A stretch of 64,000 bases of DNA from Candidatus Omnitrophota bacterium (lineage in GTDB: Bacteria; Ratteibacteria; UBA8468; B48-G9; DTJG01): contig JAMWCD010000006.1 in NCBI GenBank assembly GCA_023818965.1, positions 205,475 through 269,474 of the forward strand, given 5' to 3'. Position numbers and translations under genes: made by a program. Positions 39,225 to 54,898 of the stretch are shown here, piece by piece. Position 1 is the stretch's first letter, and every line of letters begins with the position of its first letter. A model generated the notes under the pieces. It worked only from the letters and a program-made list of their open reading frames with translations. It made no database searches and was not told the DNA's origin.

Positions 39225-39299
39225 TGCGGGGTGGAGCAGTGGTAGCTCGCCGGGCCCATAACCCGGAGGTCGGCCGTTCAAATCGGTCCCCCGCAACCA
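39225..39299 (+). tRNA. tRNA-Met (CAU), initiator type
   Basis: 75 nt, near-identical in layout to E. coli tRNA-fMet. Has three consecutive G:C pairs in the anticodon stem (GGG/CCC flanking CAU), a weak U1:A72 closing pair, the T-loop GGTTCAAATCG, and a CCA end. Confidence 0.9.
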
Positions 39300-39405: not shown

Positions 39406-41157
39406 ATGAAAATAGGCAAGCAAAGGCGACTTGTTTTTGATTTTGGGACATACCATATTCGTGCTATTGAAATCGCGCCAGGTAGAAATGCCAAAAAGTT
39501 CACAATTAACTACTACCAGCAATATGATACCCCACCATTTGCATATGATGCGAGAATTCCTGTTCTCAGGACAGAAGGGAATGAATTTATAAAATCACTT
39601 GGTGTCAAAAGGGCAGCAGTTTCTCTTCCTGGCAGGGGCATTCTTATCAGAGCCATTACTGTACCAAAGGTTCCTCTCGGAAAATTGAGGGACATTCTTA
39701 AATTTGAAATCCAGCAGCAGATTCCATTTCCGATTGAGGTTGTTGCCTGGTCATATCAAATTATTTCTGAATCAGATAAAAGTTTTCAGGTTTTGTTGTG
39801 TGCTGCAAAAAAAGACCTTGTTAATGATTTCATTGCTCATCTCTCACCATTTGCACTAACAATTGAAACCCTTGATACGGATTTCTTCGCCATTTACAAT
39901 CTTTTCCGGATATCACCTTTTTATAAGTCAGATGAGTGTCAGGCAATTCTTGATATTGGTGCTCAAAGTGCAAACCTCATTATAAATCACCAGGACAGAA
40001 TCTTAATGAGGTCATTAACTACAACAGGTGACAGTATTTCGTCCACACTGGCAGAATCAAAGAAAATTGAATTTACTGAAGCAGAAAAAATAAAAATTGA
40101 ACAGGGTATGAAATCATCTGAAATATCCTCACTTGTGGACTCCCTTAATACAGAACTGCAGAATTCAATTGACTACTGGCGCTTTACATTAAAAGGTCCT
40201 GAATTAAACAGATTTTTTATTTGTGGTGGTACTTCAAAAATGATTGGTTTAAAAGAATATCTTGAACAGAAACTCAGGGTTCCTGTGGTTTATCTTGATC
40301 CACTTATGTTCTGTGATGTTGACCCTGAATATCAGGAATATCTTGCCGATAAAGGTCCTGAAATTGCTACTGCCTGTGGTATTGCATTAAGGACAATTAA
40401 ACTTAACCCAATTGAAATTGATATGTTGCCTGTTGAGATTATCAGAATGAGAGAATTTGCTGAAAACAGGCCTTATATATTTTTATCCACAATAATGGCA
40501 GTGTTGCTCACATTGACACCACTGTTTTTCTTGAGAATAGAAAAAACCGGTTATGAGAACTATAAAAAAGAACTTGAGACATCCCTGCAGGAATATGAAA
40601 AGTTTAAACCACAGGTCGAAGCCCTTCAGAAAAGTATTAATGATGTGAAAGGCAAGATTGGAGTTGTTCAGGACTTATTTGAAAAAAAAGCATTATGGCT
40701 TGCAAGAATCATTGAAATTGGCAGTAATCTACCAAGCAGTAGAATTTACCTGAACAATATTTATCCTTCAGGAACTCAGGTTGCTCAGGCTGCTCCTGCA
40801 CCGGCTCCTCAACCGGGACAGCCACCCGGACCTCCTGGTCCTGGAGCAGGTACACCACCTCCACCAGGAGCACCTGGTACTGCAGAGCCACCACCTGCTC
40901 CGGTAGCAGCTCCACAGCCGGCTCCACAACCATCAGCGCAAACAGGGGCACCTTCAACATTACCTGAAAAGATAGATGTACTGACCCTTGAAGGTGAAGC
41001 AATTGCAACCGATATTAGAAGTGCTTTTTCTGATTTGAAATTTTTTGTTCAAAGACTTTCAAGTTTGCCATTTTTTTCTGAGGTTGTTATAAACTCATGT
41101 GAACTTGACAGGGAAACAGGTAAACTGAAGTTTCTTCTAACTGCAAAGATAAAATGA
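39406..41157 (+). CDS. type IV pilus assembly PilM-PilN fusion protein
   Basis: 583 aa. Residues 1 to about 340 form an actin-like PilM ATPase fold (VFDFGTYHIRAIEI...FICGGTSKMIGL). After that come a TM helix (IFLSTIMAVLLTLTPLFFL), a coiled coil, a Pro-rich linker (APAPAPQPGQPPGPPGP...), and a PilN-like periplasmic domain. Confidence 0.75.
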   Translation: MKIGKQRRLVFDFGTYHIRAIEIAPGRNAKKFTINYYQQYDTPPFAYDARIPVLRTEGNEFIKSLGVKRAAVSLPGRGILIRAITVPKVPLGKLRDILKFEIQQQIPFPIEVVAWSYQIISESDKSFQVLLCAAKKDLVNDFIAHLSPFALTIETLDTDFFAIYNLFRISPFYKSDECQAILDIGAQSANLIINHQDRILMRSLTTTGDSISSTLAESKKIEFTEAEKIKIEQGMKSSEISSLVDSLNTELQNSIDYWRFTLKGPELNRFFICGGTSKMIGLKEYLEQKLRVPVVYLDPLMFCDVDPEYQEYLADKGPEIATACGIALRTIKLNPIEIDMLPVEIIRMREFAENRPYIFLSTIMAVLLTLTPLFFLRIEKTGYENYKKELETSLQEYEKFKPQVEALQKSINDVKGKIGVVQDLFEKKALWLARIIEIGSNLPSSRIYLNNIYPSGTQVAQAAPAPAPQPGQPPGPPGPGAGTPPPPGAPGTAEPPPAPVAAPQPAPQPSAQTGAPSTLPEKIDVLTLEGEAIATDIRSAFSDLKFFVQRLSSLPFFSEVVINSCELDRETGKLKFLLTAKIK

Positions 41158-42077
41158 AAAAAATACTGAGTTTTTTAAAAAAGAATCTTGTTTTTGTTTT
41201 CCTTGTGATTGTTCTTGGGCTACTGGGTTTTGGGTTTAATCTTATAAGAAAGACGCAGCAGGAACTTAAGAAGATGGAAGAAGAGATAAAGGCGAAACAT
41301 GATGAAATAAGAAAGTATGAAACTCAGAAAGAACTGGCACCATCACCAGAACTTGTCAATAAATTGCAAAAACAATATACTGCGGTTGCAGAACAGTTTA
41401 ACTCTCTGTTAAACCGTTTTTCCACAACCTATCCAGCAGTACCTGAGTTTAAGGTTTTCCCGAATGTTGAATTTAAGGAATTTCTTTTTGAGACAGGAGA
41501 CCAGTTAAAAAAGAAAGCCAAAAAGAATAATGTAATTATACCCTCATCCTTTGGATTTCAGGAGACAGGTTTTCCATCACCTGACCAGATACCATTATTT
41601 TCGTTACAGATTACTGTAATCAAGCATATTCTTGACCTGCTTATTGATTCAGGTATCAGTGTTGTTAATTCGGTTGTCCCTGGTATTCCATCAACGGTTG
41701 CTTTTTATAAAATCCTTCCTCTTGATGTATCAATTACAGGAACAAGCATTGAAATTATCAGGTTTTTAAGATACCTTAACAATCCTTCATCATTCTTCAC
41801 ACTTGAAAGTTTTGCTGTGACAAAGAAGGACACAGGTTTATTTCAGGGGAATTTTAAAATCAATGCTGTGATGATTGAAAAAGCAGCCGCAGTTGTTACT
41901 TCTGAAATACCAAAAGGGACACAGCCTTCTGCACAGGGAGCACCAGGAAGTCCTTCCGGGCAGCCACAGGGAGTACCAGGAAGTCCTCCTGGAGTTCCCC
42001 AGCAGCCACAGAAAGTACCAGGACACCCTGCTGGTGTTCCCGGGCAGCCACAAGCACCACCTAATCCTGTTAAATAG
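41154..42077 (+). CDS. PilO-like inner-membrane pilus assembly protein
   Basis: 307 aa. N-terminal TM helix, coiled coil, periplasmic alpha/beta domain, and a Pro/Gln-rich tail. Lies in the PilO position, translationally coupled to pilMN. Confidence 0.55.
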   Translation: MKKILSFLKKNLVFVFLVIVLGLLGFGFNLIRKTQQELKKMEEEIKAKHDEIRKYETQKELAPSPELVNKLQKQYTAVAEQFNSLLNRFSTTYPAVPEFKVFPNVEFKEFLFETGDQLKKKAKKNNVIIPSSFGFQETGFPSPDQIPLFSLQITVIKHILDLLIDSGISVVNSVVPGIPSTVAFYKILPLDVSITGTSIEIIRFLRYLNNPSSFFTLESFAVTKKDTGLFQGNFKINAVMIEKAAAVVTSEIPKGTQPSAQGAPGSPSGQPQGVPGSPPGVPQQPQKVPGHPAGVPGQPQAPPNPVK

Positions 42078-42085
42078 GGATACTT

Positions 42086-44695
42086 ATGCAAAAAGATTTT
42101 ATTTCAAAGTGGAAGAATGCGGATAGAAAAGGTAGAAAGAAAATTCTGTGTGATTTTATTGCAGCAAAAAGAAGACAAAAAACAAATGTTTCAGATACAA
42201 GAAAAAAAATCTCATTACAGAATAAATCTGCGAGAAAACCTGTTTTGTCCTGTCTACCGAAGATTCCTGAAATTAAAAGACATGCCCTTGCATTTTGCTT
42301 TTCCTCATCCTCAGATTCACCGACTGGAGCAAGAGATGATAACATTCAGGATTCAGGCGGTGAAGACCAGCCACCAAAGTCGCCTGAAGAACCTTCAAGA
42401 AAATCAAATATGAATGTCGATAAAGGTCCTGAAATTAAAAAAGACAAAGCCCGCCAGGATAAAAAGCAATTACTGATTAGATTTATTGAAGAAAAGAAAA
42501 GGGAAAAAGAAATTGCACAGAAGCAGCGACATGCAGAGAAAGAGGCGAGGAAGAAGTTAGCAGAGGAAGCCAGGAGGCAGGCGCAGGAGAAACTGGCGAT
42601 AGATGCAGAGGCGAGGCGGCAGGCGAAGCAATTGCGTCGGCAGGAGTTATTGAAGGCAAAGATAGAGAGAGAGATAAAGGCGAAAGCAGAGAGGCAGGCA
42701 AAGATAGAGGCGAAGCAGAAGGAGAAGGAGGCGATAGAGAAGAGCCGTCAGGTTGAGCTAGAGGAGAGGAAGAGATTAGTTGAAGAGGCATTGAAATTAA
42801 GGAAGCAGAAGAAGGAATTGCTTGTAGCATACCTTAATGGAATAAGAAGCAAGAGGGAGATAGAGCAGAAGCAACGACTTGCAGAGAAAGAGGCGAGGAA
42901 GAAGTTAGCAGAGGAAGCCAGGAGGCAGGCGCAGGAGAAACTGGCGATAGATGCAGAGGCGAGGCGGCAGGCGAAGCAATTGCGTCGGCAGGAGTTATTG
43001 AAGGCAAAGATAGAGAGAGAGATAAAGGCGAAAGCAGAGAGGCAGGCAAAGATAGAGGCGAAGCAGAAGGAGAAGGAGGCGATAGAGAAGAGCCGTCAGG
43101 TTGAGCTAGAGGAGAGGAAGAGATTAGTTGAAGAGGCATTGAAATTAAGGAAGCAGAAGAAGGAATTGCTTGTAGCATACCTTAATGGAATAAGAAGCAA
43201 GAGGGAGATAGAGCAGAAGCAACGACTTGCAGAGAAAGAGGCGAGGAAGAAGTTAGCAGAGGAAGCCAGGAGGCAGGCGCAGGAGAAACTGGCGATAGAT
43301 GCAGAGGCGAGGCGGCAGGCGAAGCAATTGCGTCGGCAGGAGTTATTGAAGGCAAAGATAGAGAGAGAGATAAAGGCGAAGGCAGAGAGGCAGGCAAAGA
43401 TAGAGGCGAAGAAAATTTCTCCGAAAGTAAAGCCACCAGATATCAGACCAGAAAAAAGAAAAAAATTACTTTCCTTTATCAATGATCTGAAAGCAAAATA
43501 TCAGCAGGAAGTCATAAGACAGAAGATTGCAAAAGATGCCTTGAGGAAGCAAAAAGAAATTGCGGTTCTTGCATTAAAACAGGAAAGGCAGGCAAAAGCA
43601 ATTCAGGCAGCCGAATTCAGGGCACGGAAAAAACAAATTGAACTCCAGAAAAAAGAACTTCTCAAGGCAGAATTACTTCTTGCTGCAAAAAGAAAAGCAG
43701 AAGCAAAGGCAGTTGAGAAATCACGCAAAGAATATGAAAAACAGATTAAGGATTTTTCATCAAAAATTACTGGTGCTGTTTCAAATGTAAGCAAGTTGAC
43801 TGGGGCTGCTCTTACATCAGCAATTTCTTCTGTAACTCCATTTGTTAAGAAAGCCCAAAGTATTAAGGTCCCTGCTGCTGAAAAATTTGCAAAACCTGAG
43901 ATTGTTCCTGCAGAAGTTCCTGCAAAAGCAATACCTGCAAAAGCAGAAAAGGCAAAAAAGTACAGAGAACCAGTAAAGATTGGACCACTGTTGAGAAAGA
44001 ATGCATTCAGAATTCTTTTCTTGCTTTTACTTTTGATGTGGCTTGGCGAAATTTTGTTTTATTCACTGAGATGGCGACCGCCAAGGGAAAAGTTTGAGGA
44101 AATGTTTGGTTCTGAAGAAGCAAAATCCAGTAAAACAGGTTCTACTGAAATAACAGAGGCAGAAACAAAAATAGCAGAATATAAAATTCCTTCCATTAAC
44201 ATTGAAGGGAAAAGAGACCCATTTTCAAGTGGATTGTTGACAATGGAATTGATGAAAAAACCGAAACCAACAGAAATTGTAAAGGCATATCAACCCGAGA
44301 TTATTACAATTTCAAGAGCACCATCAATTGTTTCCTCCAGTGTTCAAAAACCTATAAGAGAAAAGGCAGAAAAGATTACACCGATTCTGAAACCAGAGAA
44401 ACCCGAACCAGCCACTGCAACATTGTCTGAGGCAACAACAACAAAGATACTTCCACCTGCTCCTGTTTCAAAACCTGAAGTTTCGCCATTGATTGTTCCA
44501 CAGATTGAGTGTAATCTTATCTACAGGGGTAGTTTGATTATGGAAGGGATTGAATATATTTTCCTTGAAGGCAAACAGAGAACATACAGGGTAACAGTTG
44601 GTGATGTTGTAGAAGGTTTCAGGATTCTGAAAAAAGAAAAGGGAGTGCTCACATTATCAAAGGAAGGAGTTATAATTGAAATTCCTGCTGAATAA
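42086..44695 (+). CDS. 869-aa bitopic protein: long E/K/R-rich helical N-terminal region containing tandem repeats, one TM helix, a Pro-rich linker, and a C-terminal PilP/GspC-HR-like beta domain
   Basis: No signal peptide. About 640 aa of KEKE-type charged helix. TM at FRILFLLLLLMWLGEILFYSL. The C-terminus (ECNLIYRGSLIMEGIEYIFLEGKQRTYRVTVGDVVEGFRILKKEKGVLTLSKEG) resembles the PilP / GspC homology-region fold. Sits in the pilP position between pilO and pilQ. Confidence 0.5.
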   Translation: MQKDFISKWKNADRKGRKKILCDFIAAKRRQKTNVSDTRKKISLQNKSARKPVLSCLPKIPEIKRHALAFCFSSSSDSPTGARDDNIQDSGGEDQPPKSPEEPSRKSNMNVDKGPEIKKDKARQDKKQLLIRFIEEKKREKEIAQKQRHAEKEARKKLAEEARRQAQEKLAIDAEARRQAKQLRRQELLKAKIEREIKAKAERQAKIEAKQKEKEAIEKSRQVELEERKRLVEEALKLRKQKKELLVAYLNGIRSKREIEQKQRLAEKEARKKLAEEARRQAQEKLAIDAEARRQAKQLRRQELLKAKIEREIKAKAERQAKIEAKQKEKEAIEKSRQVELEERKRLVEEALKLRKQKKELLVAYLNGIRSKREIEQKQRLAEKEARKKLAEEARRQAQEKLAIDAEARRQAKQLRRQELLKAKIEREIKAKAERQAKIEAKKISPKVKPPDIRPEKRKKLLSFINDLKAKYQQEVIRQKIAKDALRKQKEIAVLALKQERQAKAIQAAEFRARKKQIELQKKELLKAELLLAAKRKAEAKAVEKSRKEYEKQIKDFSSKITGAVSNVSKLTGAALTSAISSVTPFVKKAQSIKVPAAEKFAKPEIVPAEVPAKAIPAKAEKAKKYREPVKIGPLLRKNAFRILFLLLLLMWLGEILFYSLRWRPPREKFEEMFGSEEAKSSKTGSTEITEAETKIAEYKIPSINIEGKRDPFSSGLLTMELMKKPKPTEIVKAYQPEIITISRAPSIVSSSVQKPIREKAEKITPILKPEKPEPATATLSEATTTKILPPAPVSKPEVSPLIVPQIECNLIYRGSLIMEGIEYIFLEGKQRTYRVTVGDVVEGFRILKKEKGVLTLSKEGVIIEIPAE
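42500..43408 (+). repeat. 2.7 copies of a 348-bp (116-codon) in-frame tandem repeat; copies 2 and 3 are essentially identical at the nucleotide level
   Basis: Repeat unit (Q)KQRLAEKEARKKLAEEARRQAQEKLAIDAEARRQAKQLRRQELLKAKIEREIKAKAERQAKIEAKQKEKEAIEKSRQVELEERKRLVEEALKLRKQKKELLVAYLNGIRSKREIE. The mirrored antisense ORFs at 42483, 42834 and 43182 confirm the 348-bp period. The coding strand is purine-rich and GC-rich relative to its surroundings. Confidence 0.9.
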
Positions 44696-44739
44696 CTTGA
44701 CTTATGTTCAATTATCACGGTATAATACATGGAGGGAAA

Positions 44740-46635
44740 ATGAGAGGAATTAAAAAGACAAAAATCGCATTATTATGTTTTTCGCTGGCACTCTGGGGAT
44801 ATGTCTTACCTTCAATGGCTCAGACAACAAAAACATTTGCCACTTCCACAACAGAACTTGACCTTCTTTATAGCGATGCCATCAAAAGTTATTATCAAAA
44901 GGACTATGCAAGAGCAATAGCGCTTTTTAAACAGATCCAGGGTCTTTCTCCTGAATATAAAAAATCGCAGATCAACCATTATGTCAGAACTGCTGAAAGT
45001 CGTCTTGGCAAGACAACTCCTGTTACTGTTTTCAAGGTTCCTGGACAGCCGACAAAAGAAATAGAAATTAATAAAGAAGGTGAACTTGAAGCAATGGCTG
45101 AAGAAGCACAGAAAGTGCTGCTAAATACAGCCAGTTATCTGGATTCAGTAGAAAAAGAAGGCAAACTAACTGAGTTTCAACTTGTTGGTCCGAAATCATC
45201 CTTGAAAATGGCAAAAGAAGCATATGAAAACAGTCAATACACAGAGGCGATACGACTTGCCAATAAAGCAAGATTCCAGATTGACCAGTTTATTACTCAG
45301 AAAAAACCAGGTATCGTTCTTGGAAAATATGCTGACTATCCTGTAACACTGAATCTTACAGATGCAGATTTAAGCCAGACATTAAAATTGATTTATGATT
45401 TAACAGGTGCCAATATTGTATTGATGCAGGGTATTACCGGAAGGGTTTCAATCAATGTCAAGGACCTTCCCCTTCAGAGGGTTCTTGATCTTATATGTGA
45501 GGCGAACAATCTGAAGTATGTTGAGGACAATGGTGTAATAAAAATAATGACAGCAGAAGAATTTAATAAGTCCGCTGCAGCAGTGAAAGCGCGGTTGCGC
45601 AGGGTTTTCCAGGTTTACTATGGAGATGCCTTCAGTATAATGAAGGCACTAAAAGAAACATATCCAACTCAGACGATTGTTCATGATCCAAGAACAAATT
45701 CAATCATTGTTGAGGCATCTGATGAAGAAACTGCCGCAAGAATTGGAGAGATTGTTTCTTCACTTGATACACCGATTTCTCAGGTACTGCTTGAGGCAAA
45801 ACTTGTTGAAATTGTACTTTCTGATGAGAATACATTTGGTATTGACTGGCTTGTAAGTTCACGACTTGTTTCTGCTCTTGGTTCAGGCGGAACTCTAACA
45901 GGACCAAGATTCGGGGATAATCCGAATTTTACTCCTGGAGTATCCTCTTCCTTACCTCAGGGAACATTTTCTTTTGGAATAACAAATTATGATGTAAATG
46001 CCTTGATTCAGGCATTAAGTGCAAAGGGACAGGTGAAACTATTGCAGGCACCAAAGATTATGTGTCTCAATGGTACAACAGCAGTGATCAGTGTACAGAC
46101 AAACGTACCATATTTGATACCCCAATCAACTGTATCACAGCAGCAGCAAACCATTACGACAACCGCAACATTCAATGTTTTTGAAGACCAGGTTGGAACA
46201 GAGTTTACTGTTACTCCTATTATTCAGAGAAACAGGAGTATCTTTTTGAACCTTAACATCTATGATGCACGTTTGATAGAAATTAAACGATTGACAGCAA
46301 TCGCAGGAGGACAGCAATATTCAACAGACCAGCCCGTGATTTCAAACAGGGAAACAAACCAGAGTATTGTTGTTTATGATGGTCAAACCTTGATTATCGG
46401 TGGTATGATTCAGGATAGGAAAGAACTTAAAACTACAGGTGTTCCTTTTCTCCAGCATATACCACTATTGGGATATCTTTTTAAGAAACCAAGTTACAGC
46501 AGTGCAAAAAGTGAGATGTTACTGTTTTTGACACCAAGGGTAGTAAGTACATATGAGGATGCTAATGCTGTCAGTAAGCCAGATGTACAAAAACTGGACA
46601 AAAAGATTGATGCCGGTATTCTTGAAAAGTACTGA
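44740..46635 (+). CDS. pilQ: PilQ-type secretin
   Basis: Signal peptide, TPR-like helical segment, secretin N domain (VTLNLTDADLSQTLKLI...), secretin core (VLLEAKLVEIVLSDENTFGIDW), and the C-terminal signature GVPFLQHIPLLGYLFKKPSY...LLFLTPRVV. Confidence 0.85.
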   Translation: MRGIKKTKIALLCFSLALWGYVLPSMAQTTKTFATSTTELDLLYSDAIKSYYQKDYARAIALFKQIQGLSPEYKKSQINHYVRTAESRLGKTTPVTVFKVPGQPTKEIEINKEGELEAMAEEAQKVLLNTASYLDSVEKEGKLTEFQLVGPKSSLKMAKEAYENSQYTEAIRLANKARFQIDQFITQKKPGIVLGKYADYPVTLNLTDADLSQTLKLIYDLTGANIVLMQGITGRVSINVKDLPLQRVLDLICEANNLKYVEDNGVIKIMTAEEFNKSAAAVKARLRRVFQVYYGDAFSIMKALKETYPTQTIVHDPRTNSIIVEASDEETAARIGEIVSSLDTPISQVLLEAKLVEIVLSDENTFGIDWLVSSRLVSALGSGGTLTGPRFGDNPNFTPGVSSSLPQGTFSFGITNYDVNALIQALSAKGQVKLLQAPKIMCLNGTTAVISVQTNVPYLIPQSTVSQQQQTITTTATFNVFEDQVGTEFTVTPIIQRNRSIFLNLNIYDARLIEIKRLTAIAGGQQYSTDQPVISNRETNQSIVVYDGQTLIIGGMIQDRKELKTTGVPFLQHIPLLGYLFKKPSYSSAKSEMLLFLTPRVVSTYEDANAVSKPDVQKLDKKIDAGILEKY

Positions 46636-46707
46636 TAAACTGATCACTGACAAAAAACGTCTAAAAATAGAAAGCCGTGGAAGCAAAAATACGGCAGGAG
46701 GTGTGAT

Positions 46708-47514
46708 ATGAAAAAAATTGCTGCATTGGTTCTGATTCTGGTACTTGTGTTTTTCTGTATTGATTTGTTTGCTCAAACAACATCAACAAGGACTTCAACT
46801 TCAACCGGTTCATCAAGAACGAGTTCCCGGACATCAAGGACAGGGACAGGTAGTACTTCGGGTTACGATACTACTGGTAGTGCGGACTTTGTTATTTCAG
46901 CTATTGCAGGCATGTTAAGACATCGTGACAAAGAAGTGAGAATACAGGCATTGCAGGCACTTGTTGGTGGTATGACACTTGGAACTACAACAACATCCTC
47001 GTCTTCAACAACCAGTACAGGGATTGGAGATATTTTTGGAATGAGGGGAGGAGGAACCACAACTTCCTCTTCCAGTTCGACTTCTGTCCAGGGACTTGGA
47101 ACTACTGTACTTATTCCTGAATTTTTTACAATGCTCTCTGACCCAGACCCTGAAATCAGGGACCTTGTTTCAATTGCCCTTGACCAGATCTTTGGTACAG
47201 ATGCAAGTTTAATCAGGTTTCTTCATGACCCGGATCCTGTTGTGAGAAAATATGCAATGAGATTATTTGTAATCAGAACCAGGGAAGATAGCCAGTATCG
47301 AACAACAACATCATCATCTTCAGGAACAACATATACAAGAAGTGCCAATGATATTTTGATTATGAGAATTCTTTTGAATATGATGAAAGACCCTGACCCT
47401 GATGTGAAAAAGGTTGCAACTGATGCTCTTGAAAAATTCATTTCTGACCTTGAAAAAAGATACGAAAGTACTATGGGAACAGGTCAACCAGGTGTTCAGC
47501 AACCACTGAGATAA
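46708..47514 (+). CDS. small secreted protein with Ser/Thr-rich low-complexity linkers and three HEAT/PBS-lyase-like repeats
   Basis: Signal peptide. Poly-S/T/R tracts (TSTRTSTSTGSSRTSSRTSRTGTGSTSG, TTTTSSSSTTSTG, TTTSSSSSTS). Three DPDP-x-[VI][RK]..A..AL motifs (DPDPEIRDLVSIALDQI, DPDPVVRKYAMRLF, DPDPDVKKVATDALEKF). Confidence 0.5.
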   Translation: MKKIAALVLILVLVFFCIDLFAQTTSTRTSTSTGSSRTSSRTSRTGTGSTSGYDTTGSADFVISAIAGMLRHRDKEVRIQALQALVGGMTLGTTTTSSSSTTSTGIGDIFGMRGGGTTTSSSSSTSVQGLGTTVLIPEFFTMLSDPDPEIRDLVSIALDQIFGTDASLIRFLHDPDPVVRKYAMRLFVIRTREDSQYRTTTSSSSGTTYTRSANDILIMRILLNMMKDPDPDVKKVATDALEKFISDLEKRYESTMGTGQPGVQQPLR

Positions 47515-47535
47515 TTTAATAATTTTGGGAGAACA

Positions 47536-49095
47536 ATGCTATCAAAAAAATTTGTACTGTGTCTTGTATTGATGTTTTCAGTTTGTTCTTTTGCACAGAA
47601 GCAATTTACATTGAATTTTAATAATGTTGATATACTGACATTTATTAAACTTGTCAGTGAGTTCACAGGTGAAAACTATGTCATTGACCCTGCTGTGAGA
47701 GGAAGTGTAACAATCATTTCTCAAAAACCTGTTGAAAGTGAAAAATTATACCAGGTTTTTCAGGCAGTATTGAATCTTTATGGATTCACAGTTGTGAAAA
47801 GGGATAGTGTTTCATTTATCATTCCTTCGACAGATGGCAGAGCAAGGTCTCCAGTTGTTAACTATGGAGATATTGGCGATGACAAACTTGATATACATAT
47901 CACCCAGATTATTCCAATGAAATATTATACGGCTGACACTGTGACTCAGATTTTAACACCATACATTTCAAAGGCAGGACAGATTTCTTTTGATAGTAGA
48001 AGTAACACAATCTTTATTTCTGACTTTGGCTCAAATATAAAAAAAATTCTTGAAATAGTCAGGGCAATTGACCAGCCAAGTCCTCCAGGAAAAGAATCAT
48101 TAAGGGTCTTTAAACTTCAAAATGCTAATGCTGAGGATGTTGCAAAAACACTTAGTGATATTCTTGCCAAAAAAAGGGTTCAACCAGCAAGACCAGGTCA
48201 GGTTATTGTTCAACCTGCAGTCGTTTCTGTGAAATCGACAAATTCTTTGATTGTTTATGCTGAAGCAGATGATTTCACCAATATCGAAGGGCTTATTAAA
48301 GAACTTGATGTAATGACAAATCAGGTACTCATAGAAGCATTGATTGCTGAAGTTTCTTACAAGAGAGAACAGGACATAGGGATACAGTGGGCAACAGTTC
48401 AGGATTTTCACCATGATAAGTATTCTGGTTCTGCACAAACAAAGTTCGGGGTTGAAAACGTTACAAATGGCTTACTTATCGGTTTTACAAATGCCCAGAG
48501 TTTAATTGATTATGTAAAAATAGCACTATCAGGAAAAGATACACAGTTTAAGATTTTAAGTACTCCCCAGATTATGACAGCAGATAATACAGAGGCAACA
48601 ATCAATGTAAGTGAAAATACACCTTATTTGAAAGAAACAAGGTTTACAACAGGAACCGGTGGTACTGGTACTGATACAATAAGAAGTTATGATTACAAGG
48701 ATGTCGGAATTATTCTGAAAATAACACCACAAATCAGTCAGGATAGATATGTTCGTTTGAAATTGCATCAGGAAGTCACAAAGGTTATTACTGAAAACAC
48801 TGAAGGAGCATTAACAACAGCCAAACGTGAGGCAGATACCACACTGATTGTCCCGAACCATCAAACAGTTGTACTTGGAGGTCTAATTCGTGATGATAAT
48901 GAAAATACCATTAACAAAGTCCCTTTTCTTGGAGATATCCCTGGAATTGGAAAATTGTTCAGAAGGGAAACAAAAGGTAGTGTAAAAACGAATCTTTTGA
49001 TTTTTATCACGCCTCGTATTATTACGAATTTTGAAGAAGCAGAAAGAATAAAGCAAGAGAAGGAAAAAATTTTTAAAAATGAACAGAAAAATTAA
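47536..49095 (+). CDS. gspD: GspD-type secretin (type II secretion outer-membrane channel)
   Basis: Signal peptide, GspD N0 domain (FNNVDILTFIKLVSEFTGENYVIDPAVRGSVTIIS), N1-N3-like repeats, secretin core (VLIEALIAEVSY...GIQW), and the C-terminal VPFLGDIPGIGKLFRRE...LLIFITPRII. Confidence 0.85.
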   Translation: MLSKKFVLCLVLMFSVCSFAQKQFTLNFNNVDILTFIKLVSEFTGENYVIDPAVRGSVTIISQKPVESEKLYQVFQAVLNLYGFTVVKRDSVSFIIPSTDGRARSPVVNYGDIGDDKLDIHITQIIPMKYYTADTVTQILTPYISKAGQISFDSRSNTIFISDFGSNIKKILEIVRAIDQPSPPGKESLRVFKLQNANAEDVAKTLSDILAKKRVQPARPGQVIVQPAVVSVKSTNSLIVYAEADDFTNIEGLIKELDVMTNQVLIEALIAEVSYKREQDIGIQWATVQDFHHDKYSGSAQTKFGVENVTNGLLIGFTNAQSLIDYVKIALSGKDTQFKILSTPQIMTADNTEATINVSENTPYLKETRFTTGTGGTGTDTIRSYDYKDVGIILKITPQISQDRYVRLKLHQEVTKVITENTEGALTTAKREADTTLIVPNHQTVVLGGLIRDDNENTINKVPFLGDIPGIGKLFRRETKGSVKTNLLIFITPRIITNFEEAERIKQEKEKIFKNEQKN

Positions 49096-50620
49096 TCTTT
49101 CACTAACCAGTGAAGAAATTGAAAAACTTATTGACTCTGAATTGCTTCCAAAATTTCCATATTCTTTTCTTGAAAACTTTTCACTTTTACCATTAAGGGA
49201 TGCTCCTGGCAGGGTGTTATTTGCAACAAGCGACATTTCAAAAATTGATGCAGGAGAAATTGAACAATTTACAGGAAAAAAGGTTTCATTTGTGATTGTT
49301 GATAAACAGATTATTAGTGAACTTCTGAAAAAACATTATTACAATCCTGCATCATCCCAGAAAATCATTCAGGAATTAACACGTGATGAAGCAATGTTTG
49401 AAGAATCAATTCCAGAAGAACTTCCTTCACAAAATGGAGACCTTCTCGATCTTGCAAATCAAGCCCCTATTATACGACTTGTCAATCAGATTTTTTACAG
49501 GGCGATTTTGATGAGGGCAAGTGATATTCATCTTCAAAGTTTGGAAAACTATCTCAAGGTAAGATACAGGATTGATGGAATGCTTCATGATGTTCTCACA
49601 CTCCCTGCAAAATATCAACCTGCTGTGATTTCAAGGGTAAAAATCATTTCTGACCTTGATATTGCAGAAAAAAGAATTCCGCAGGATGGAAGAACAACAA
49701 TCAGAATTGATGATAGACAGATTGATGTGAGGGTATCAATTATTCCAACCTTTTTCGGAGAATCTGCAGTTTTGCGTTTACTTGACCAATCAACATATAA
49801 TTTTGGACTTAATGAACTCGGTTTTTCTGAAAATGATCTGGTGAGATTTGACAGGTTAATCCATTACGACCATGGAATAATACTTCTTACAGGTCCAACT
49901 GGTAGTGGAAAAACAACAACACTGTATGCGGCTCTTTCAAGGATTAATAATCCCCAGATTCATATTATTACGCTTGAAGACCCTGTTGAGTATCAACTTG
50001 ATGGAATTAACCAGATACAGGTTAATCCAAAGGTAGGACTTACATTTGCCAGTGGATTGCGTTCAATTTTGAGGCACGACCCTAATGTTATTATGGTTGG
50101 AGAAATACGAGACAGGGAAACAGCAGAAATGGCAATTCAGGCATCTCTTACAGGACATCTTGTTTTCAGTACCCTTCATACGAATGATTCGACAAGTTCC
50201 ATTACTCGTCTTCTTGATATGGGCATAGAGCCATATCTTATTGCTTCCTCTGTCATTGGAATTATTGCCCAGCGACTGGTTCGCCTTAATTGTGTTAAGT
50301 GTTCTGAACCTGTTTTGTATCCTGACGAACTTTTAAGGGAAATTGGACTTGACCCTTCTGCTGATGGATATAATTTTAAAAAGGGAAAAGGTTGCGAAGT
50401 TTGTTTAAATACGGGCTATCACAAAAGAACAGGTATTTTTGAATTTCTTGAAATTGATGACGAAATTCGTAATCTTATTATGAAGCAGGTTTCAGCAGGA
50501 GAAATCAGAAGATATGCCCTCAGCAAAGGATTGAGAACCTTACGGATGGATGGAGCAAGAAAGGTTGCTGAAGGGCTTACAACAATCAGTGAAGTCCTCA
50601 GAGTAACCCAGGAAACCTGA
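49079..50620 (+). CDS. gspE: GspE/PilB-family secretion ATPase
   Basis: 513 aa. Walker A (LLTGPTGSGKTTTLYA), Asp box, Walker B, His box, and a tetracysteine zinc motif (CVKCSEP...CEVCLNTGY). Confidence 0.9.
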   Translation: MNRKINLSLTSEEIEKLIDSELLPKFPYSFLENFSLLPLRDAPGRVLFATSDISKIDAGEIEQFTGKKVSFVIVDKQIISELLKKHYYNPASSQKIIQELTRDEAMFEESIPEELPSQNGDLLDLANQAPIIRLVNQIFYRAILMRASDIHLQSLENYLKVRYRIDGMLHDVLTLPAKYQPAVISRVKIISDLDIAEKRIPQDGRTTIRIDDRQIDVRVSIIPTFFGESAVLRLLDQSTYNFGLNELGFSENDLVRFDRLIHYDHGIILLTGPTGSGKTTTLYAALSRINNPQIHIITLEDPVEYQLDGINQIQVNPKVGLTFASGLRSILRHDPNVIMVGEIRDRETAEMAIQASLTGHLVFSTLHTNDSTSSITRLLDMGIEPYLIASSVIGIIAQRLVRLNCVKCSEPVLYPDELLREIGLDPSADGYNFKKGKGCEVCLNTGYHKRTGIFEFLEIDDEIRNLIMKQVSAGEIRRYALSKGLRTLRMDGARKVAEGLTTISEVLRVTQET

Positions 50621-50621
50621 A

Positions 50622-51818
50622 ATGCCGGTATTTTCCTACGATGGCTTTGATAGGCAGGGGAAACATGTTTCTGGCAGAATTGAAGCCGATAATATTTCCA
50701 TTGCCAGAGCCATGGTTAAGGAAAATGGTATCTTTATAAAAAAAATTGTTCCTTTCAATCAGCCCAAACGTTTTCGCACTGAAAAGGTTAAAATGGATGA
50801 TTTTGCGCTTTCAATAAGAGAACTTGCTACATTGCTTAATTCAGGATTAACCCTTGATGAAAGTGTATCAGGAATTATTGCCCAGATGAAGGAAGGGAAA
50901 CTTAAAGATGTTTATACAGATATCCAGAAGCAAATCAGGGAAGGTAAAAGTTTTTCAAAGGCAGCATCACAGTATCCTGAACTTTTTTCAGATATCTCTC
51001 TTTCAATGATAAAGTCAGGAGAGGCAAGTGGAACACTTGGACTGGTCCTTGAGCACATTGCAAAATTTTTGGAAGAATCAATTTATTTCAAAAATAAGGT
51101 TCTTGGTATTATGACCTATCCAATTATGATGGCTATTGTTGGCACATTTGTCTTGATTTTTGTCTTTACTTTTGTTACACCAACAATCACAAGAATTTTT
51201 TCAGAAATTTCCCTTAAACTGCCTTTACCGACACTTATTCTGATAAAGTTTTCATCTTTTTTAAGGCACTACATCCTTGCAGTAATTGCATTTATACTGA
51301 TTGCAGTATATCTTATTGCAAGATACATTCATTCAGAAAAAGGAAAAGCAAGTTTCGCAAGATTTAGAAGGAAAATTCCATACCTTGGTGAGATTTTTTT
51401 CAAAAGTGAGATTGCAAACTTTACTGGTACTTTAGGAACACTTCTTCAAGGAGGTGTTGAAATTCTTACCAGTTTCAACATTGCACAGGAGGTTGTATCG
51501 AATCCTGATTTAAGACAGCAGATTGACAGGGCAAGAGACCTGATTTCACGTGGACAAAGTGTTTCATCTGCACTTCGTAAAACAACAATGTTTCCTTACA
51601 CTGTCATTCAACTGATTTCAGCAGGGGAAAAAAGTGGAACAATGCCACAGATGTTGATGAAAATCTCTGTAAATTTCAAAGAGGAAGTTTCTCAGAAGGC
51701 AACAAGATTCGTAACAATTCTTGAACCATTTATGATTCTTTTTATGGCTGTAATTGTGGGTTTTGTAGTTATTGGAATCATGCTGCCGATTTTTCAAATC
51801 AGTCAGAGTATAAGATGA
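50622..51818 (+). CDS. gspF: GspF/PilC-family inner-membrane platform protein
   Basis: 398 aa. Two repeated GspF domains separated by TM helices, plus the conserved start PxFxYxGxDxxG. Confidence 0.9.
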   Translation: MPVFSYDGFDRQGKHVSGRIEADNISIARAMVKENGIFIKKIVPFNQPKRFRTEKVKMDDFALSIRELATLLNSGLTLDESVSGIIAQMKEGKLKDVYTDIQKQIREGKSFSKAASQYPELFSDISLSMIKSGEASGTLGLVLEHIAKFLEESIYFKNKVLGIMTYPIMMAIVGTFVLIFVFTFVTPTITRIFSEISLKLPLPTLILIKFSSFLRHYILAVIAFILIAVYLIARYIHSEKGKASFARFRRKIPYLGEIFFKSEIANFTGTLGTLLQGGVEILTSFNIAQEVVSNPDLRQQIDRARDLISRGQSVSSALRKTTMFPYTVIQLISAGEKSGTMPQMLMKISVNFKEEVSQKATRFVTILEPFMILFMAVIVGFVVIGIMLPIFQISQSIR

Positions 51819-51893
51819 AAAGTTTATTTAAACCATTTTTTAATTTCCCATTTTACAAAGGTGGATAAAGGAGGATTTTAACAGGGAGAACAT

Positions 51894-52349
51894 ATGAGAA
51901 ACAGAAAAGGATTTACCTTCATAGAATTGATGGCTGTTGTAATAATTCTTGGAATTCTGGCAATGTATGTAATGCCAAAGATATTTGGAAGGGTTGACGA
52001 AGCAAAGGTAACTGCAGCAAAGATTCAGATAAAAAGCTTTGAACAGGCACTAAAACTTTTTTATCTGGATAATAATTTCTATCCTTCTACAGAACAGGGT
52101 CTTGAGGCTCTTGTAGAAAAACCAACAACAGGAAGGATTCCTGAAAAATGGCGAGAAGGTGGATATCTTGAAAAAAAGTCAATTCCTCTGGACCCATGGG
52201 GACATCCTTATGTATATTTATCCCCGGGAAGAAATGGTGAGGACTATGAAATTATTTCATACGGGAAAGACGGTCAGGAAGGTGGAACAGGATATGATGC
52301 AGACATCTCAAGCAGTGAAATTGAACCCACAGAAAAACCATCTCAATAA
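51894..52349 (+). CDS. gspG: major pseudopilin GspG
   Basis: RKGFTFIELMAVVIILGILA prepilin leader, and the GspG-specific body ...EQGLEALVEKPT...LDPWGHPYVYLSPGRNGEDYEIISYGKDGQEGGTGYDADI. Confidence 0.9.
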   Translation: MRNRKGFTFIELMAVVIILGILAMYVMPKIFGRVDEAKVTAAKIQIKSFEQALKLFYLDNNFYPSTEQGLEALVEKPTTGRIPEKWREGGYLEKKSIPLDPWGHPYVYLSPGRNGEDYEIISYGKDGQEGGTGYDADISSSEIEPTEKPSQ

Positions 52350-52808
52350 AGGGTTTACGCTTTTTGAACTGATGGTAGTAATCCTCATTATTAGTTTTTT
52401 TTTGTCAACATGGCTCGCTACTCAACATTTTCTTTTGAAGAAAAAACCAAAATTCCTGAGATTGAGGAAATCATCAATCAAGCAACCAGCACATCTTTAA
52501 GTTCTGGAAAGCCATATATTTTATTTTTCAACATTGATGAACAATCGTATGTCCTGGTTGAAAGAGACCAGACAATTTTAAAAAATGTTCCTGATGGGGT
52601 TTCTTATAACAAACTATCAGGAGATTTTAAAATCATTCGTATCACAGTAAATGGCTATAACTATGAATCAGGTTGTCCTGGAATTACATTTTTTGCTGAT
52701 GGAAGTCGGGAATATGCAGAGATTGAATTAGAAAGTATTGAAGGAACAAGGTGGACTGTTGTTTTGAATCCTTACTCATCAGTTGCCGAAATTACTCAAT
52801 CATCGTAA
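52294..52808 (+). pseudogene. gspH: GspH-like minor pseudopilin interrupted by a frameshift in a T10 homopolymer (52393-52402)
   Basis: The prepilin leader NKGFTLFELMVVILIISFF is in the frame of ORF 52159..52500. The C-terminal body (ORF 52410..52808) is in another frame. Inserting one T in the T10 run joins them as ...ISFFFVNMARYSTFSF... Confidence 0.5.
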
Positions 52809-53191
52809 TGAAAAGAAAAACTGGTTTTACGCTTCTTGAAGCAATGGTGGCAGTTGGAATATTTGCAATACTTGGTATTGTTTGTCTTGAAAATTATCTT
52901 CTTAATGCAGGTATTGCCCAGAAGATTATTGATGACCAGACATGTTTGATTCTTGCCAGGCAAAAGGAATTTGAGTACTTACAGAATCCTGAAAATATAA
53001 GTGAAACAGGTGATTTTGGAGATATTGACCCAGAAGCGAAATATCAAATAGAGACAAGTGATATATCAGTAAGTGAAACTGTGACTGTTGACAGTGAAAT
53101 TACTCTCAACTTTACTGTTGTGAGGATGATTGTGAAAAAAAGAAGTTCAATGGTTTCTTATCCTTTTTTAATAAAACCAGCGACAGAATAA
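52808..53191 (+). CDS. gspI: GspI-like minor pseudopilin
   Basis: MKRKTGFTLLEAMVAVGIFAILGI leader. About 127 aa, the typical size for GspI. Confidence 0.65.
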   Translation: MKRKTGFTLLEAMVAVGIFAILGIVCLENYLLNAGIAQKIIDDQTCLILARQKEFEYLQNPENISETGDFGDIDPEAKYQIETSDISVSETVTVDSEITLNFTVVRMIVKKRSSMVSYPFLIKPATE

Positions 53192-53212
53192 AAACAGCAA
53201 GGATTTTTTGAA

Positions 53213-53764
53213 ATGATGAATTACACAATGGAAAAAAAGAATGCAGGTTTTACATTGATGGAGATGCTTGTAGTTATTGTGATTGGTTTTATTATTGTAC
53301 TTCTTGTTTATCAGACGATGCAATCAACAATTCGTGTTTCTGCGGTAATACAGGAAAAAATTACTGATATGCAAAGAGTGAATTTTTTTCTCACATCATT
53401 TTCATCCCGTTTATTATGTATTGTTCCTGACAGCAAGAACAATAGTTTTACCAGCAGTAAAGTTTCCATTGAACTGGACGAATATAATTCAAGAAAAATT
53501 ATTACCTATGAAATTGAACCAGATGAAACAGGAAAATTTGGCCTTACTGTTGGTGAAAAGGATATTCTATTAAATACAGAGTGTTCATATCCTGGATTGA
53601 GTGGTCTTGATAGCATAGAATTTTCATTTTTTGATGGTGATTCGTGGTTGACTGATTGGGATAAAGATACATTACCACAGGGAATAGCCATTACATTTGT
53701 GAGAAATGGTTCTAAAATATTTTTTCCTGTGAAACTTGACATTCAAAGTGTGCAGGAAACATAA
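53213..53764 (+). CDS. gspJ: GspJ-like minor pseudopilin
   Basis: KKNAGFTLMEMLVVIVIGFIIVLL leader and a GspJ-like C-terminus (...WLTDWDKDTLPQGIAITF). Confidence 0.65.
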   Translation: MMNYTMEKKNAGFTLMEMLVVIVIGFIIVLLVYQTMQSTIRVSAVIQEKITDMQRVNFFLTSFSSRLLCIVPDSKNNSFTSSKVSIELDEYNSRKIITYEIEPDETGKFGLTVGEKDILLNTECSYPGLSGLDSIEFSFFDGDSWLTDWDKDTLPQGIAITFVRNGSKIFFPVKLDIQSVQET

Positions 53765-53785
53765 TGATGAAATTCTCATTTTCCT

Positions 53786-53940
53786 CTTTTCCACCTTCCC
53801 TTCAGGAAGGAGGGAATGCAAGGGGAGGTTGAAATCTCCCAAAAATCCCCCTCTGTCCCCCTTTGAAAAAGGGGGAAGAGAAGGGGGATTTTAGAAAAGG
53901 GGGCAATAGAGGGAAAAATTGAATGGAAGGGGAATTTACA
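53786..53940. repeat. cluster A of G/C-rich hairpin repeats (C5T3-loop-A3G5 family) in the gspJ-gspK intergenic spacer
   Basis: ccttcaggaagg palindrome, tccccctttgaaaaaggggga hairpin, and repeated gggggatttt / aagggggaa motifs. Strongly G/C-biased compared with the flanking AT-rich DNA. Confidence 0.6.
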
Positions 53941-53998
53941 AGAGGGTAAAAAATATGGTTAAGTTTGGCAGAACCAAAAAGAATATGGAGTTAAACAG

Positions 53999-54898
53999 AT
54001 GAAAAATGGTTTCATACTCATTACCACGCTGGCATTTCTTGCAATTCTTGCTGCAAATGCTGTGCTACTATCGGATTTTATTAGATTTCGTGCTGAACTT
54101 CAACACAATCAGAATGCACAGTTTCTTGTTGACAAAATTGCAAGGGCAGGAATCAGTGCAGGTGAAACAATTTTACTTCTGGATAAAAACTCATATGACT
54201 GGTTTACTGATATATGGGTGAAGCCAAAACATCTTGAGTTTCCTGAAGGAAGTGTTGATATTACCATTGAGCCACTTGATACAAAATTCAATGTTAACAG
54301 TATTATTGGTCGTGATAAATCAATAAACACTCAGGCAAAAAACATTTTCAGTAATCTTTTGTCTGTTATGGGTTTTCCTTCATCCCTTCTTGATACACTG
54401 CTTGACTGGCTTGATAGCGATGATTTTCCAGGAGTTTTCGGAGCAGAATCAGAATATTATGCAACCCTTGTACCACCGTATAAACCTGCCAATGGACCTT
54501 TGAATGATACATTTGAACTTGCGTATATCAAAGGGTTTACACCTGAAATTTTAATCCGTAGCGGAGAAAGACCAGGGCTTATTGATTTGCTTACAATCTT
54601 TTCTGATAATAAAATAAATGTTAATATGGCTGACCCGATAATATTACAGGCACTCGGGTATTCATCTGCTTCTGTTGAGAAGATTTTGAATGAAAGAGAA
54701 CTCAGACCATTAACAATGAATATTCTTATGAGGATTGACAGACGGACGACAGGATCTCTTACAAGGGTAATAAAATTTTCAAGCAGTTTTTTTAAGATCA
54801 CTGCCCATGCAACATGTGCTGGAATTTCATCTACGCAATCACTTGTTGTTCAGAGGGCAAATAACAAAATCACAAGATTGAGATGGGAAAGAAATTGA
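53999..54898 (+). CDS. gspK: GspK-like minor pseudopilin
   Basis: 299 aa. N-terminal hydrophobic prepilin-like segment (GFILITTLAFLAILAANAVLL) and a GspK-like body (KFNVNSI...ADPIILQALG). Confidence 0.7.
   Translation: MKNGFILITTLAFLAILAANAVLLSDFIRFRAELQHNQNAQFLVDKIARAGISAGETILLLDKNSYDWFTDIWVKPKHLEFPEGSVDITIEPLDTKFNVNSIIGRDKSINTQAKNIFSNLLSVMGFPSSLLDTLLDWLDSDDFPGVFGAESEYYATLVPPYKPANGPLNDTFELAYIKGFTPEILIRSGERPGLIDLLTIFSDNKINVNMADPIILQALGYSSASVEKILNERELRPLTMNILMRIDRRTTGSLTRVIKFSSSFFKITAHATCAGISSTQSLVVQRANNKITRLRWERN

Follow-up and report, generated by a model that had tools for sequence, protein, structure and literature searches.

In-frame 348-bp repeats of variable number in a Ratteibacteria gene for a probable PilP/GspC-like subunit

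The 64,000-nucleotide stretch of a Candidatus Omnitrophota (Ratteibacteria) contig analyzed here (the window) contains an open reading frame (ORF) of 869 codons within which a 348-bp unit is repeated in tandem. The array is an in-frame variable-number tandem repeat (VNTR) of coding sequence, and the repeat phenomenon itself is ordinary. We consider it likely that this is a real VNTR and that the gene carrying it codes for a PilP/GspC-like subunit, restricted to this lineage, of a type IV pilus-like machine. Whole modules would be gained or lost through unequal homologous recombination or replication slippage among near-identical units, which would produce one-, two- and three-module alleles within one species, and gene conversion or repeated re-duplication would keep the copies alike within each species. 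In the encoded protein, one transmembrane (TM) helix would act as the anchor, a periplasmic C-terminal domain with the HR/PilP fold would dock on the adjacent secretin, and the N-terminal ~640 residues would form long polycationic alpha-helices on the cytoplasmic side.

The repeat array and its length alleles

Tandem Repeats Finder (TRF) placed the array at 42518-43411, with a period of 348, 2.6 copies, 99% matches and no indels. A base-by-base comparison at a lag of 348 found identity over 42518-43063, with partners extending to 43411, a span of 894 bp (2.57 copies); in module register the count comes to about 2.7 copies. Position 42518 is the first position of codon 145 of the ORF at 42086-44695, the unit is 116 codons long, and the ORF continues through the array uninterrupted. 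There are only two tandem arrays in the 64-kb window, this one and a short 42-bp repeat in the neighboring gene. The parts of the array are as follows.

42461..42517, plus strand: older, diverged 5′ part of module 1, with the motif KKQLLIRFIEEKK
42518..42865, plus strand: repeat copy 1, 348 bp, residues 145-260, with 2 mismatches to copy 2
42866..43213, plus strand: repeat copy 2, 348 bp, residues 261-376
43214..43411, plus strand: partial repeat copy 3, 198 bp, residues 377-442, with 1 synonymous mismatch to copy 2
42483-42830, 42834-43178 and 43182-43436, minus strand: three antisense open frames, Ser/Pro/Leu-rich, by-products and not genes

Only 3 of the 546 positions compared at this lag differ (42526, 42531 and 43033), two of them synonymously. 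Copies 1 and 2 are distinguished by 42526 (G/A, synonymous in a Gln codon, 9 nucleotides from the 5′ edge) and by 42531 (A/T, His149/Leu265, 14 nucleotides from that edge). Between copies 2 and 3 there is a single difference, 43033 A / 43381 G, which is synonymous (AAA/AAG, Lys). The longest exact run is 501 bp (42532-43032 = 42880-43380). Upstream of 42518, identity at lag 348 falls abruptly to ~50%, and the peptide encoded there, KKQLLIRFIEEKKREKEIA, is still visibly homologous to the 3′ end of the unit, KKELLVAYLNGIRSKREIE. The motif KKQLLIRFIEEKK within 42461..42517 corresponds by homology to KKELLVAYLNGIR, found at the 3′ end of every 348-bp unit, and motifs of the same type are found at residues 17-29 and 456-468 of the protein. 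At the other end, the identity of copy 3 stops sharply at the start of the Pro-rich segment KISPKVKPPD.

Adenine and guanine each make up 38% of the array, cytosine 13% and thymine 11%, giving 51% GC and 76% purine, against 36.8% GC for the whole window. Antisense frames stay open across it because the pyrimidine-rich antisense strand lacks stop codons; the frame at 42483-42830 translates to Ser/Pro/Leu-rich sequence. We rejected these frames as genes; the purine-rich composition of the sense strand accounts for them. An Rfam scan of the window gave no match in the array, its sole match being a tRNA. An earlier note on this DNA, made from its letters, had described a purine-rich, GC-elevated, in-frame array of about 2.7 units of 348 bp, with copies 2 and 3 one synonymous change apart, copy 1 diverging only at its 5′ edge, and antisense pseudo-ORFs at 42483, 42834 and 43182. 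That description holds in each of these respects, the copy number when counted in module register, and all three antisense frames are present.

The gene occurs at three lengths. The protein cluster at 90% identity has five full-length members, of 869 residues (the window), 753 residues (three members) and 637 residues, which differ by exact steps of 116 residues. The four other contigs, from two ENA analyses and two JGI metagenomes, keep the gene order, and their flanks are 98.5-99.2% identical to the window over 5-11 kb; from this identity and the shared order we conclude that the contigs are conspecific. If the unit is divided into A (198 bp) and B (150 bp; in the window 42716-42865 and 43064-43213), the alleles can be written A, ABA and ABABA. 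The one-module allele (A, 637 residues) is that of L002, a contig that runs through the site unbroken. A comparison of the paired A copies inside each of the three ABA alleles gave 3, 2 and 5 differences over 198 positions, and the longest exact repeated runs are 99 nucleotides (L001), 166 nucleotides (L003) and 76 nucleotides (the third). The L001 allele is unambiguous in a k-mer assembly, since the name of its contig (k141_) implies a k of 141, which exceeds the 99-nucleotide run. At the level of assembled sequence, size polymorphism within the species is supported, as the earlier note had anticipated for strains. A scan of metagenome contigs found no further conspecific alleles among the matches listed, which comprised at least six distant loci.

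Repeats in orthologous genes

Eight of the 17 complete orthologs, all from other species, have in-frame tracts of their own in the N-domain, at 92-99% nucleotide identity (~95-99% in seven of them); apart from L008 and L009, these are the more distant orthologs. Tract lengths are 345 bp in L008, 348 bp in L009, 456 bp in L016, 402 bp in L019, 369 bp in L021, 282 bp in L022, 294 bp in L031, and 141, 282 and 618 bp in L032. Most of these tracts amount to ~1.2-1.9 "copies" with sharp edges, and they resemble the outcome of gene conversion, or of unequal exchange among paralogous modules already present, more than that of single clean duplications. L009 represents a different species (68% identity in the C-terminal part). 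Its 348-bp repeat runs to 1.9 copies (2 mismatches over 305 bp) and is bounded differently from the window array.

A hidden Markov model of the module, built in the register that starts at the KKxLLxxFI motif, found three copies in the window protein, two each in L008 and L009, and one each in L005, L006, L010 and L011. A second, truncated module is also visible in L006 and L010 by alignment and motif anchoring. The motif-to-motif spacing of 115-116 residues is common to five species (those of the window, L006, L008, L009 and L010), so the two-motif architecture predates them. Within a genome, the modules are 84% identical in nucleotide sequence in the window (99% inside the A tract), 97% in L008 and 100% in L009. 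Between species, orthologous modules are 41-59% identical in nucleotide sequence, and those elsewhere have 18-39% protein identity to the window's. Judged by these comparisons, the recurrence of the tracts points to recurrent duplication or gene conversion, in line with the recent duplication or concerted evolution proposed in the earlier note: the copies are 84-100% nucleotide-identical within three species and 41-59% identical between species.

Shorter tandem repeats (33-51 bp, 93-100% matches) are present in four family members. The one in L009 (gene nucleotides 2009-2120) duplicates RETFEKIKPILKPAKPE in the periplasmic Pro-rich linker that runs from the RDPF motif to the HR-like domain. 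Those in L037 (nucleotides 1221-1329), L029 (1011-1074) and L033 (1614-1689) lie at comparable downstream positions, judged by ORF coordinate only. Some records in the family call for comment. L029 (JAWAET010000079.1) comes from a bin labeled Candidatus Pacearchaeota archaeon, which is probably bin contamination. In P0015 a DnaQ-like exonuclease (PF00929) is joined to an HR-like domain, possibly through a chimeric contig or a miscalled gene. Finally, L011 and L040 (JPMR_maxbin.046) are one ortholog split over two contig ends, L011 breaking off inside the gene and L040 opening with the last 59 residues.

The encoded protein and its gene neighborhood

The product of the ORF is MCM8806005.1 at NCBI, annotated "hypothetical protein", which we identified via its protein cluster; the contig index had no exact match to the 869 residues. 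Its metagenome-assembled genome (MAG) is filed as Candidatus Omnitrophica bacterium, and the contig is 298 kb long. According to a preprint, genomes of Ratteibacteria are frequently deposited under the name Omnitrophica and are part of the Planctomycetes-Verrucomicrobia-Chlamydiae (PVC) supergroup. The features of the gene are listed below, with AlphaFold2 confidence given as the predicted local distance difference test (pLDDT) score.

42086..44695, plus strand: ORF, 869 residues, putative bitopic inner-membrane protein of PilP/GspC-like type, its long N-domain basic, helical and probably cytoplasmic
44003..44071, plus strand: single TM helix AFRILFLLLLLMWLGEILFYSLR, residues ~640-662 (AlphaFold2, pLDDT ~92; hydropathy scan), conserved in the family
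44201..44227, plus strand: IEGKRDPFS motif (13-sequence alignment)
44504..44692, plus strand: predicted six-stranded beta domain of GspC-HR/PilP fold, residues ~807-869 (AlphaFold2), the putative docking domain for the secretin N0

The start of the ORF is conserved in the orthologs as MxxDFIxKW. The conserved N-terminus, MQKDFISKWK...RKKILCDFIAAKR, is followed by a disordered Ser/Asp/Pro segment and then by ~500 residues rich in K/E/R/A/Q, inside which the array lies. No hydrophobic segment, signal peptide or lipobox was found in the N-terminus, MQKDFISKWKNADRKGRKK. The flank upstream of the TM helix is strongly basic. In the IEGKRDPFS motif beyond the helix, I, E, G, R, D, P, F and S are invariant in the alignment and K709 is nearly so (Lys/Arg). 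A Pro-rich linker separates this motif from the conserved C-terminal domain of 60 residues, which AlphaFold2, given a 9-sequence alignment, modeled as six strands with a pLDDT of 93. In this model the C-terminal domain has the PilP/HR beta-sandwich fold, and the protein ends 2 residues past the last strand. With the N-terminus placed inside, the layout is of the GspC type, in which a bitopic anchor is followed by a periplasmic HR-like domain.

Searches with sequence models returned nothing. Neither Pfam (E ≤ 0.01) nor NCBIfam gave a match to the full 869-residue protein, nine family members had no Pfam match at E ≤ 10 with the PilP (PF04351) and T2SSC models included, and a profile search of PDB sequences with the protein's family was empty. 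In the literature searched, the protein family is not described. Because a full-length homology search was swamped by low-complexity candidates (one cluster), the C-terminal 241 residues were searched separately. A profile search with this part found 41 members only among 1.84 billion representative proteins; the C-terminal family is small and lineage-restricted.

We infer that the N-terminal ~640 residues are cytoplasmic and the C-terminal 200 residues periplasmic, because a signal peptide is absent, the only TM helix comes after the repeats, and the HR/PilP fold lies beyond that helix. The N-domain contains 183 K+R and 100 D+E, a net charge of +83, and the periplasmic part is approximately neutral, which fits the positive-inside rule. 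Orthologs with long N-domains have N-domain net charges of +47 to +83, and the periplasmic part of the orthologs carries -3 to +8, with a single ortholog more than 3 away from zero. In size, the cytoplasmic domain reaches ~640 residues and measures 320-640 residues in most complete orthologs. On this topology the array would encode part of a cytoplasmic domain and not a surface or periplasmic stalk. As a separate observation, the charge density of the N-domain is +0.11 to +0.15 per residue in every ortholog, across N-domains of 117 to 637 residues.

For residues 1-640, AlphaFold2 predicted helices at 117-253, 264-430 and 454-591 with pLDDT 80-90. By this prediction the array forms part of one or two very long helices, which each module would lengthen by ~17 nm if fully extended (116 × 0.15 nm). 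Each unit brings a net charge of about +14 and one copy of a KKxLLxxFIxxxK-type motif, which is also conserved at the N-terminus of the family and again ~170 residues before the TM helix. By composition the unit is 51% E+K+R, 20% hydrophobic residues and 75% K/E/R/A/Q.

The following genes surround the ORF.

39406..41157, plus strand: PilM-like domain of actin fold, followed in one chain by a TM helix, coiled coil, Pro-rich linker and C-terminal domain (Pfam PilM_2, 1.5e-29; NCBIfam Amuc_1101_fam, 4.9e-65, far below cutoff)
41154..42077, plus strand: Amuc_1100/PilO-like protein, TM helix at the N-terminus, tail rich in Pro/Gly (NCBIfam Amuc_1100_fam at 6.6e-13, below cutoff)
44704..46635, plus strand: PilQ-like secretin (STN, N0, Secretin_N and Secretin domains), presumably partnered by the HR-like domain

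The order of the PilM-like gene, the Amuc_1100/PilO-like gene, the 869-residue ORF and the secretin gene is conserved in L001-L004. The ORF thus stands between PilM/N/O-like genes and a secretin gene, which is the pilP position. Its C-terminal domain most likely docks on the N0 of the secretin, whose gene, with an N0/STN region, is adjacent. Orthologs of the product of 41154..42077 carry PF28028 Amuc_1100 in precomputed annotation, and the neighborhood also has an NCBIfam Amuc_1098 match (2.7e-21, below cutoff).

Several further details of the locus were recorded. In the 39406-41157 fusion, the actin-like domain covers residues 1-330 and the TM helix ~355-378, as in a PilM-PilN or GspL-like single chain. 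In L003 (2335-3915; JGI 3300010938) the PilM-like protein was called at 526 residues with no Pfam match and is followed by a 186-bp gap. It has 583 residues at the other conspecific loci, and the difference may reflect a frameshift or sequence error. A tRNA gene at 39225-39296 (Rfam RF00005, 61 bits), the window's only Rfam match, lies between zapA and the PilM-like gene. At 41927-42052, the 3′ end of the ORF at 41154-42077, in-frame units of 42/33 bp with copies 69-82% identical encode the Pro/Gly-rich tail. This Amuc_1100/PilO-like gene is also length-polymorphic, being 33 bp (11 residues) shorter in L002-L004 (296 vs. 307 residues). There are two secretin genes, the PilQ-like one at 44704-46635 and a GspD at 47536-49095, separated by a gene for a HEAT-repeat protein (46708-47514). 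GspD is followed by GspE (a GspE-like ATPase at 49079-50620), GspF, GspG and the minor pseudopilins J and K (44704-54898 for the whole run), and these genes may serve one machine or two.

Alternative explanations and known systems

The gene length in this MAG is sensitive to assembly, which is a practical warning and vindicates the caution of the earlier note that short reads can collapse or expand such arrays. At unit positions 9, 14 and 168, copy 1 has G, A and A, copy 2 has A, T and A, and copy 3 has A, T and G. A single unequal crossover between the A copies of an ABA parent is expected to give exactly this pattern of single-nucleotide polymorphisms (SNPs). Several points nonetheless weigh against a real VNTR in a PilP/GspC-like subunit gene. 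A de Bruijn-graph loop traversed twice gives the same SNP pattern, which does not discriminate because the informative sites are 154 nucleotides apart, and we rejected the three SNPs as proof of unequal crossover for this reason. All of the alleles come from metagenome assemblies, and the one-module L002 allele could in principle be a collapsed assembly. The protein has no match to a PilP or GspC sequence model, and its family assignment rests on a 60-residue fold and gene order. The power at a 3.5-residue periodicity is 0.55, against a 95th percentile of 0.54 for shuffled sequence, with E+K+R at 51%, and the helix may be a dimeric coiled coil or a single one. The variation in module number may also be neutral. 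Three copies in the window are unproven; on balance, we lean toward a genome that truly has three. It is rather unlikely, in our judgment, that the third copy is an assembly artifact, with a true ABA allele (753 residues) and an assembler that walked the A-B loop twice. At 501 bp, the exact repeat is longer than the k-mers and reads of short-read sequencing. A second pass through the loop would create precisely the chimera seen in the middle copy (A9, T14 with A168), and three of the four other conspecific assemblies are two-module. However, short-read assemblers usually collapse repeats or break contigs there instead of expanding them, and a 298-kb contig fits long-read or well-resolved data. 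Real unequal crossover predicts the same SNPs, and its reciprocal product, a one-module allele, is seen in L002.

Strong purifying selection on the protein sequence of the module could be proposed as what keeps the copies nearly identical, and the module architecture, with its spacing of 115-116 residues, is indeed conserved across five species. Yet the identity reaches synonymous sites (two of the 3 differences in 546 positions are synonymous), modules of other species are only 18-39% protein-identical to the window's, and the tract edge is abrupt, passing from ~50% to ~99% at 42518. We rejected purifying selection as the cause of copy identity on the synonymous sites and the abrupt edges, and find it scarcely credible. 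The other proposal concerns the location of the repeats, which might form an extracytoplasmic stalk, either a periplasm-spanning TolA-like helix or a surface fibril, with a length that is tuned or antigenically varied as in streptococcal M, alpha-C and Rib proteins. The K/E/A/R-rich helical composition resembles that of TolA domain II and of surface coiled-coil proteins, and nucleotide-identical, number-variable repeats are typical of surface proteins. The topology is against it: the N-terminus has neither a signal peptide nor a hydrophobic segment, the sole TM helix (residues 640-662) comes after the repeats, the HR/PilP fold, necessarily periplasmic and encoded beside a secretin gene, lies across that helix from the repeats, and the charges (+83 in the N-domain, ~0 in the C-terminal part) are those expected under the positive-inside rule. 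We rejected a TolA-like or M-protein-like stalk on these grounds as very improbable. The earlier note had spoken of a variable stalk length; length variation in the encoded protein stands, and a stalk at the surface or in the periplasm very probably does not, with the repeats N-terminal to the only TM helix and no signal peptide.

The constant positive charge density of the N-domain suggests, as a hypothesis, a polyanionic partner (nucleic acid or acidic membrane), and the repeated motif similarly suggests a docking peptide. A more specific proposal, which we put forward as a long shot, is that the modules are functional units, each with one docking motif (KKxLLxxFIxxxK) and a charge of about +14, and that module number sets the valency and reach of a tether to a cytoplasmic partner, for which a polyanion such as nucleic acid, the PilM-like ring or an ATPase would be candidates. 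Were this true, selection for a secretion-machine subunit of quickly adjustable length would lie behind the recurrent near-identical duplications in more than eight species, and a PilP/GspC-type protein would directly couple the secretin to the cytoplasm. Subunits of this type are normally periplasmic or have a cytoplasmic stub, and here there is a long, basic, helical domain that appears to be cytoplasmic. Its charge density is conserved while in-frame duplications repeatedly remodel its length, inside a single species too. Should length or module number prove to matter, an outer-membrane secretin would here be coupled to cytoplasmic components in a new way, and the one-, two- and three-module alleles would be a natural allelic series for testing it.

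Among known repeat proteins, the streptococcal alpha-C/Rib and M proteins are similar in having long, in-frame, near-identical DNA units and whole-unit copy differences between strains. Those proteins are surface-exposed and under immune selection, and their repeats evolve by unequal recombination. The window array differs in that it is probably cytoplasmic and lies in a machine subunit. TolA domain II and ER/K spacers resemble the array in forming a long, unbroken, highly charged helix (as predicted by AlphaFold2 for the window protein, with K/E/R/A/Q at 75% of the unit). Unlike in those spacers, the unit is placed on the cytoplasmic side and is strongly positive (+14 per unit) instead of balanced, and it departs from a classical ER/K helix in having only 51% E+K+R and 20% hydrophobic residues.

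The neighboring genes match Amuc_1101, Amuc_1100 and Amuc_1098 of the Amuc_1098-Amuc_1102 pili-like cluster of Akkermansia muciniphila in the same order, though weakly and below cutoff; this organism and the uncultured host of the window belong to the same PVC supergroup. The positional equivalent of the 869-residue protein is the uncharacterized Amuc_1099, which is reported to have an N-terminal signal sequence (PMC5332112), a feature not found in the 869-residue protein. The two are likened by position; no link by sequence emerged from NCBIfam on the 869-residue ORF or from the profile search of 1.84 billion representative proteins with its 41 members.

Two classes of machine subunit are closest. 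PilP, of the type IVa pilus alignment subcomplex (PDB 2Y4X, 2Y4Y, 2LC4, 2IVW and 4AV2), is like our protein in fold and gene position. PilP is a lipoprotein without a cytoplasmic part, whereas the 869-residue protein lacks both signal peptide and lipobox, combines an internal TM helix with a very large, probably cytoplasmic domain, and is unmatched by PF04351. GspC of the type II secretion system (HR domain in PDB 3OSS chain C; PulC/OutC in 6HCG) has a similar layout of TM anchor and HR domain. Its cytoplasmic N-terminus is short, and a PDZ or coiled-coil domain usually follows the HR domain. In contrast, ~640 residues on the probable cytoplasmic side precede the TM helix of the 869-residue protein, no further domain follows its HR-like one, and the T2SSC Pfam model does not match the protein even at E = 10. 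We therefore regard its architecture as a new variant, closest by function to GspC, through the TM anchor and HR domain, and by gene position to PilP.

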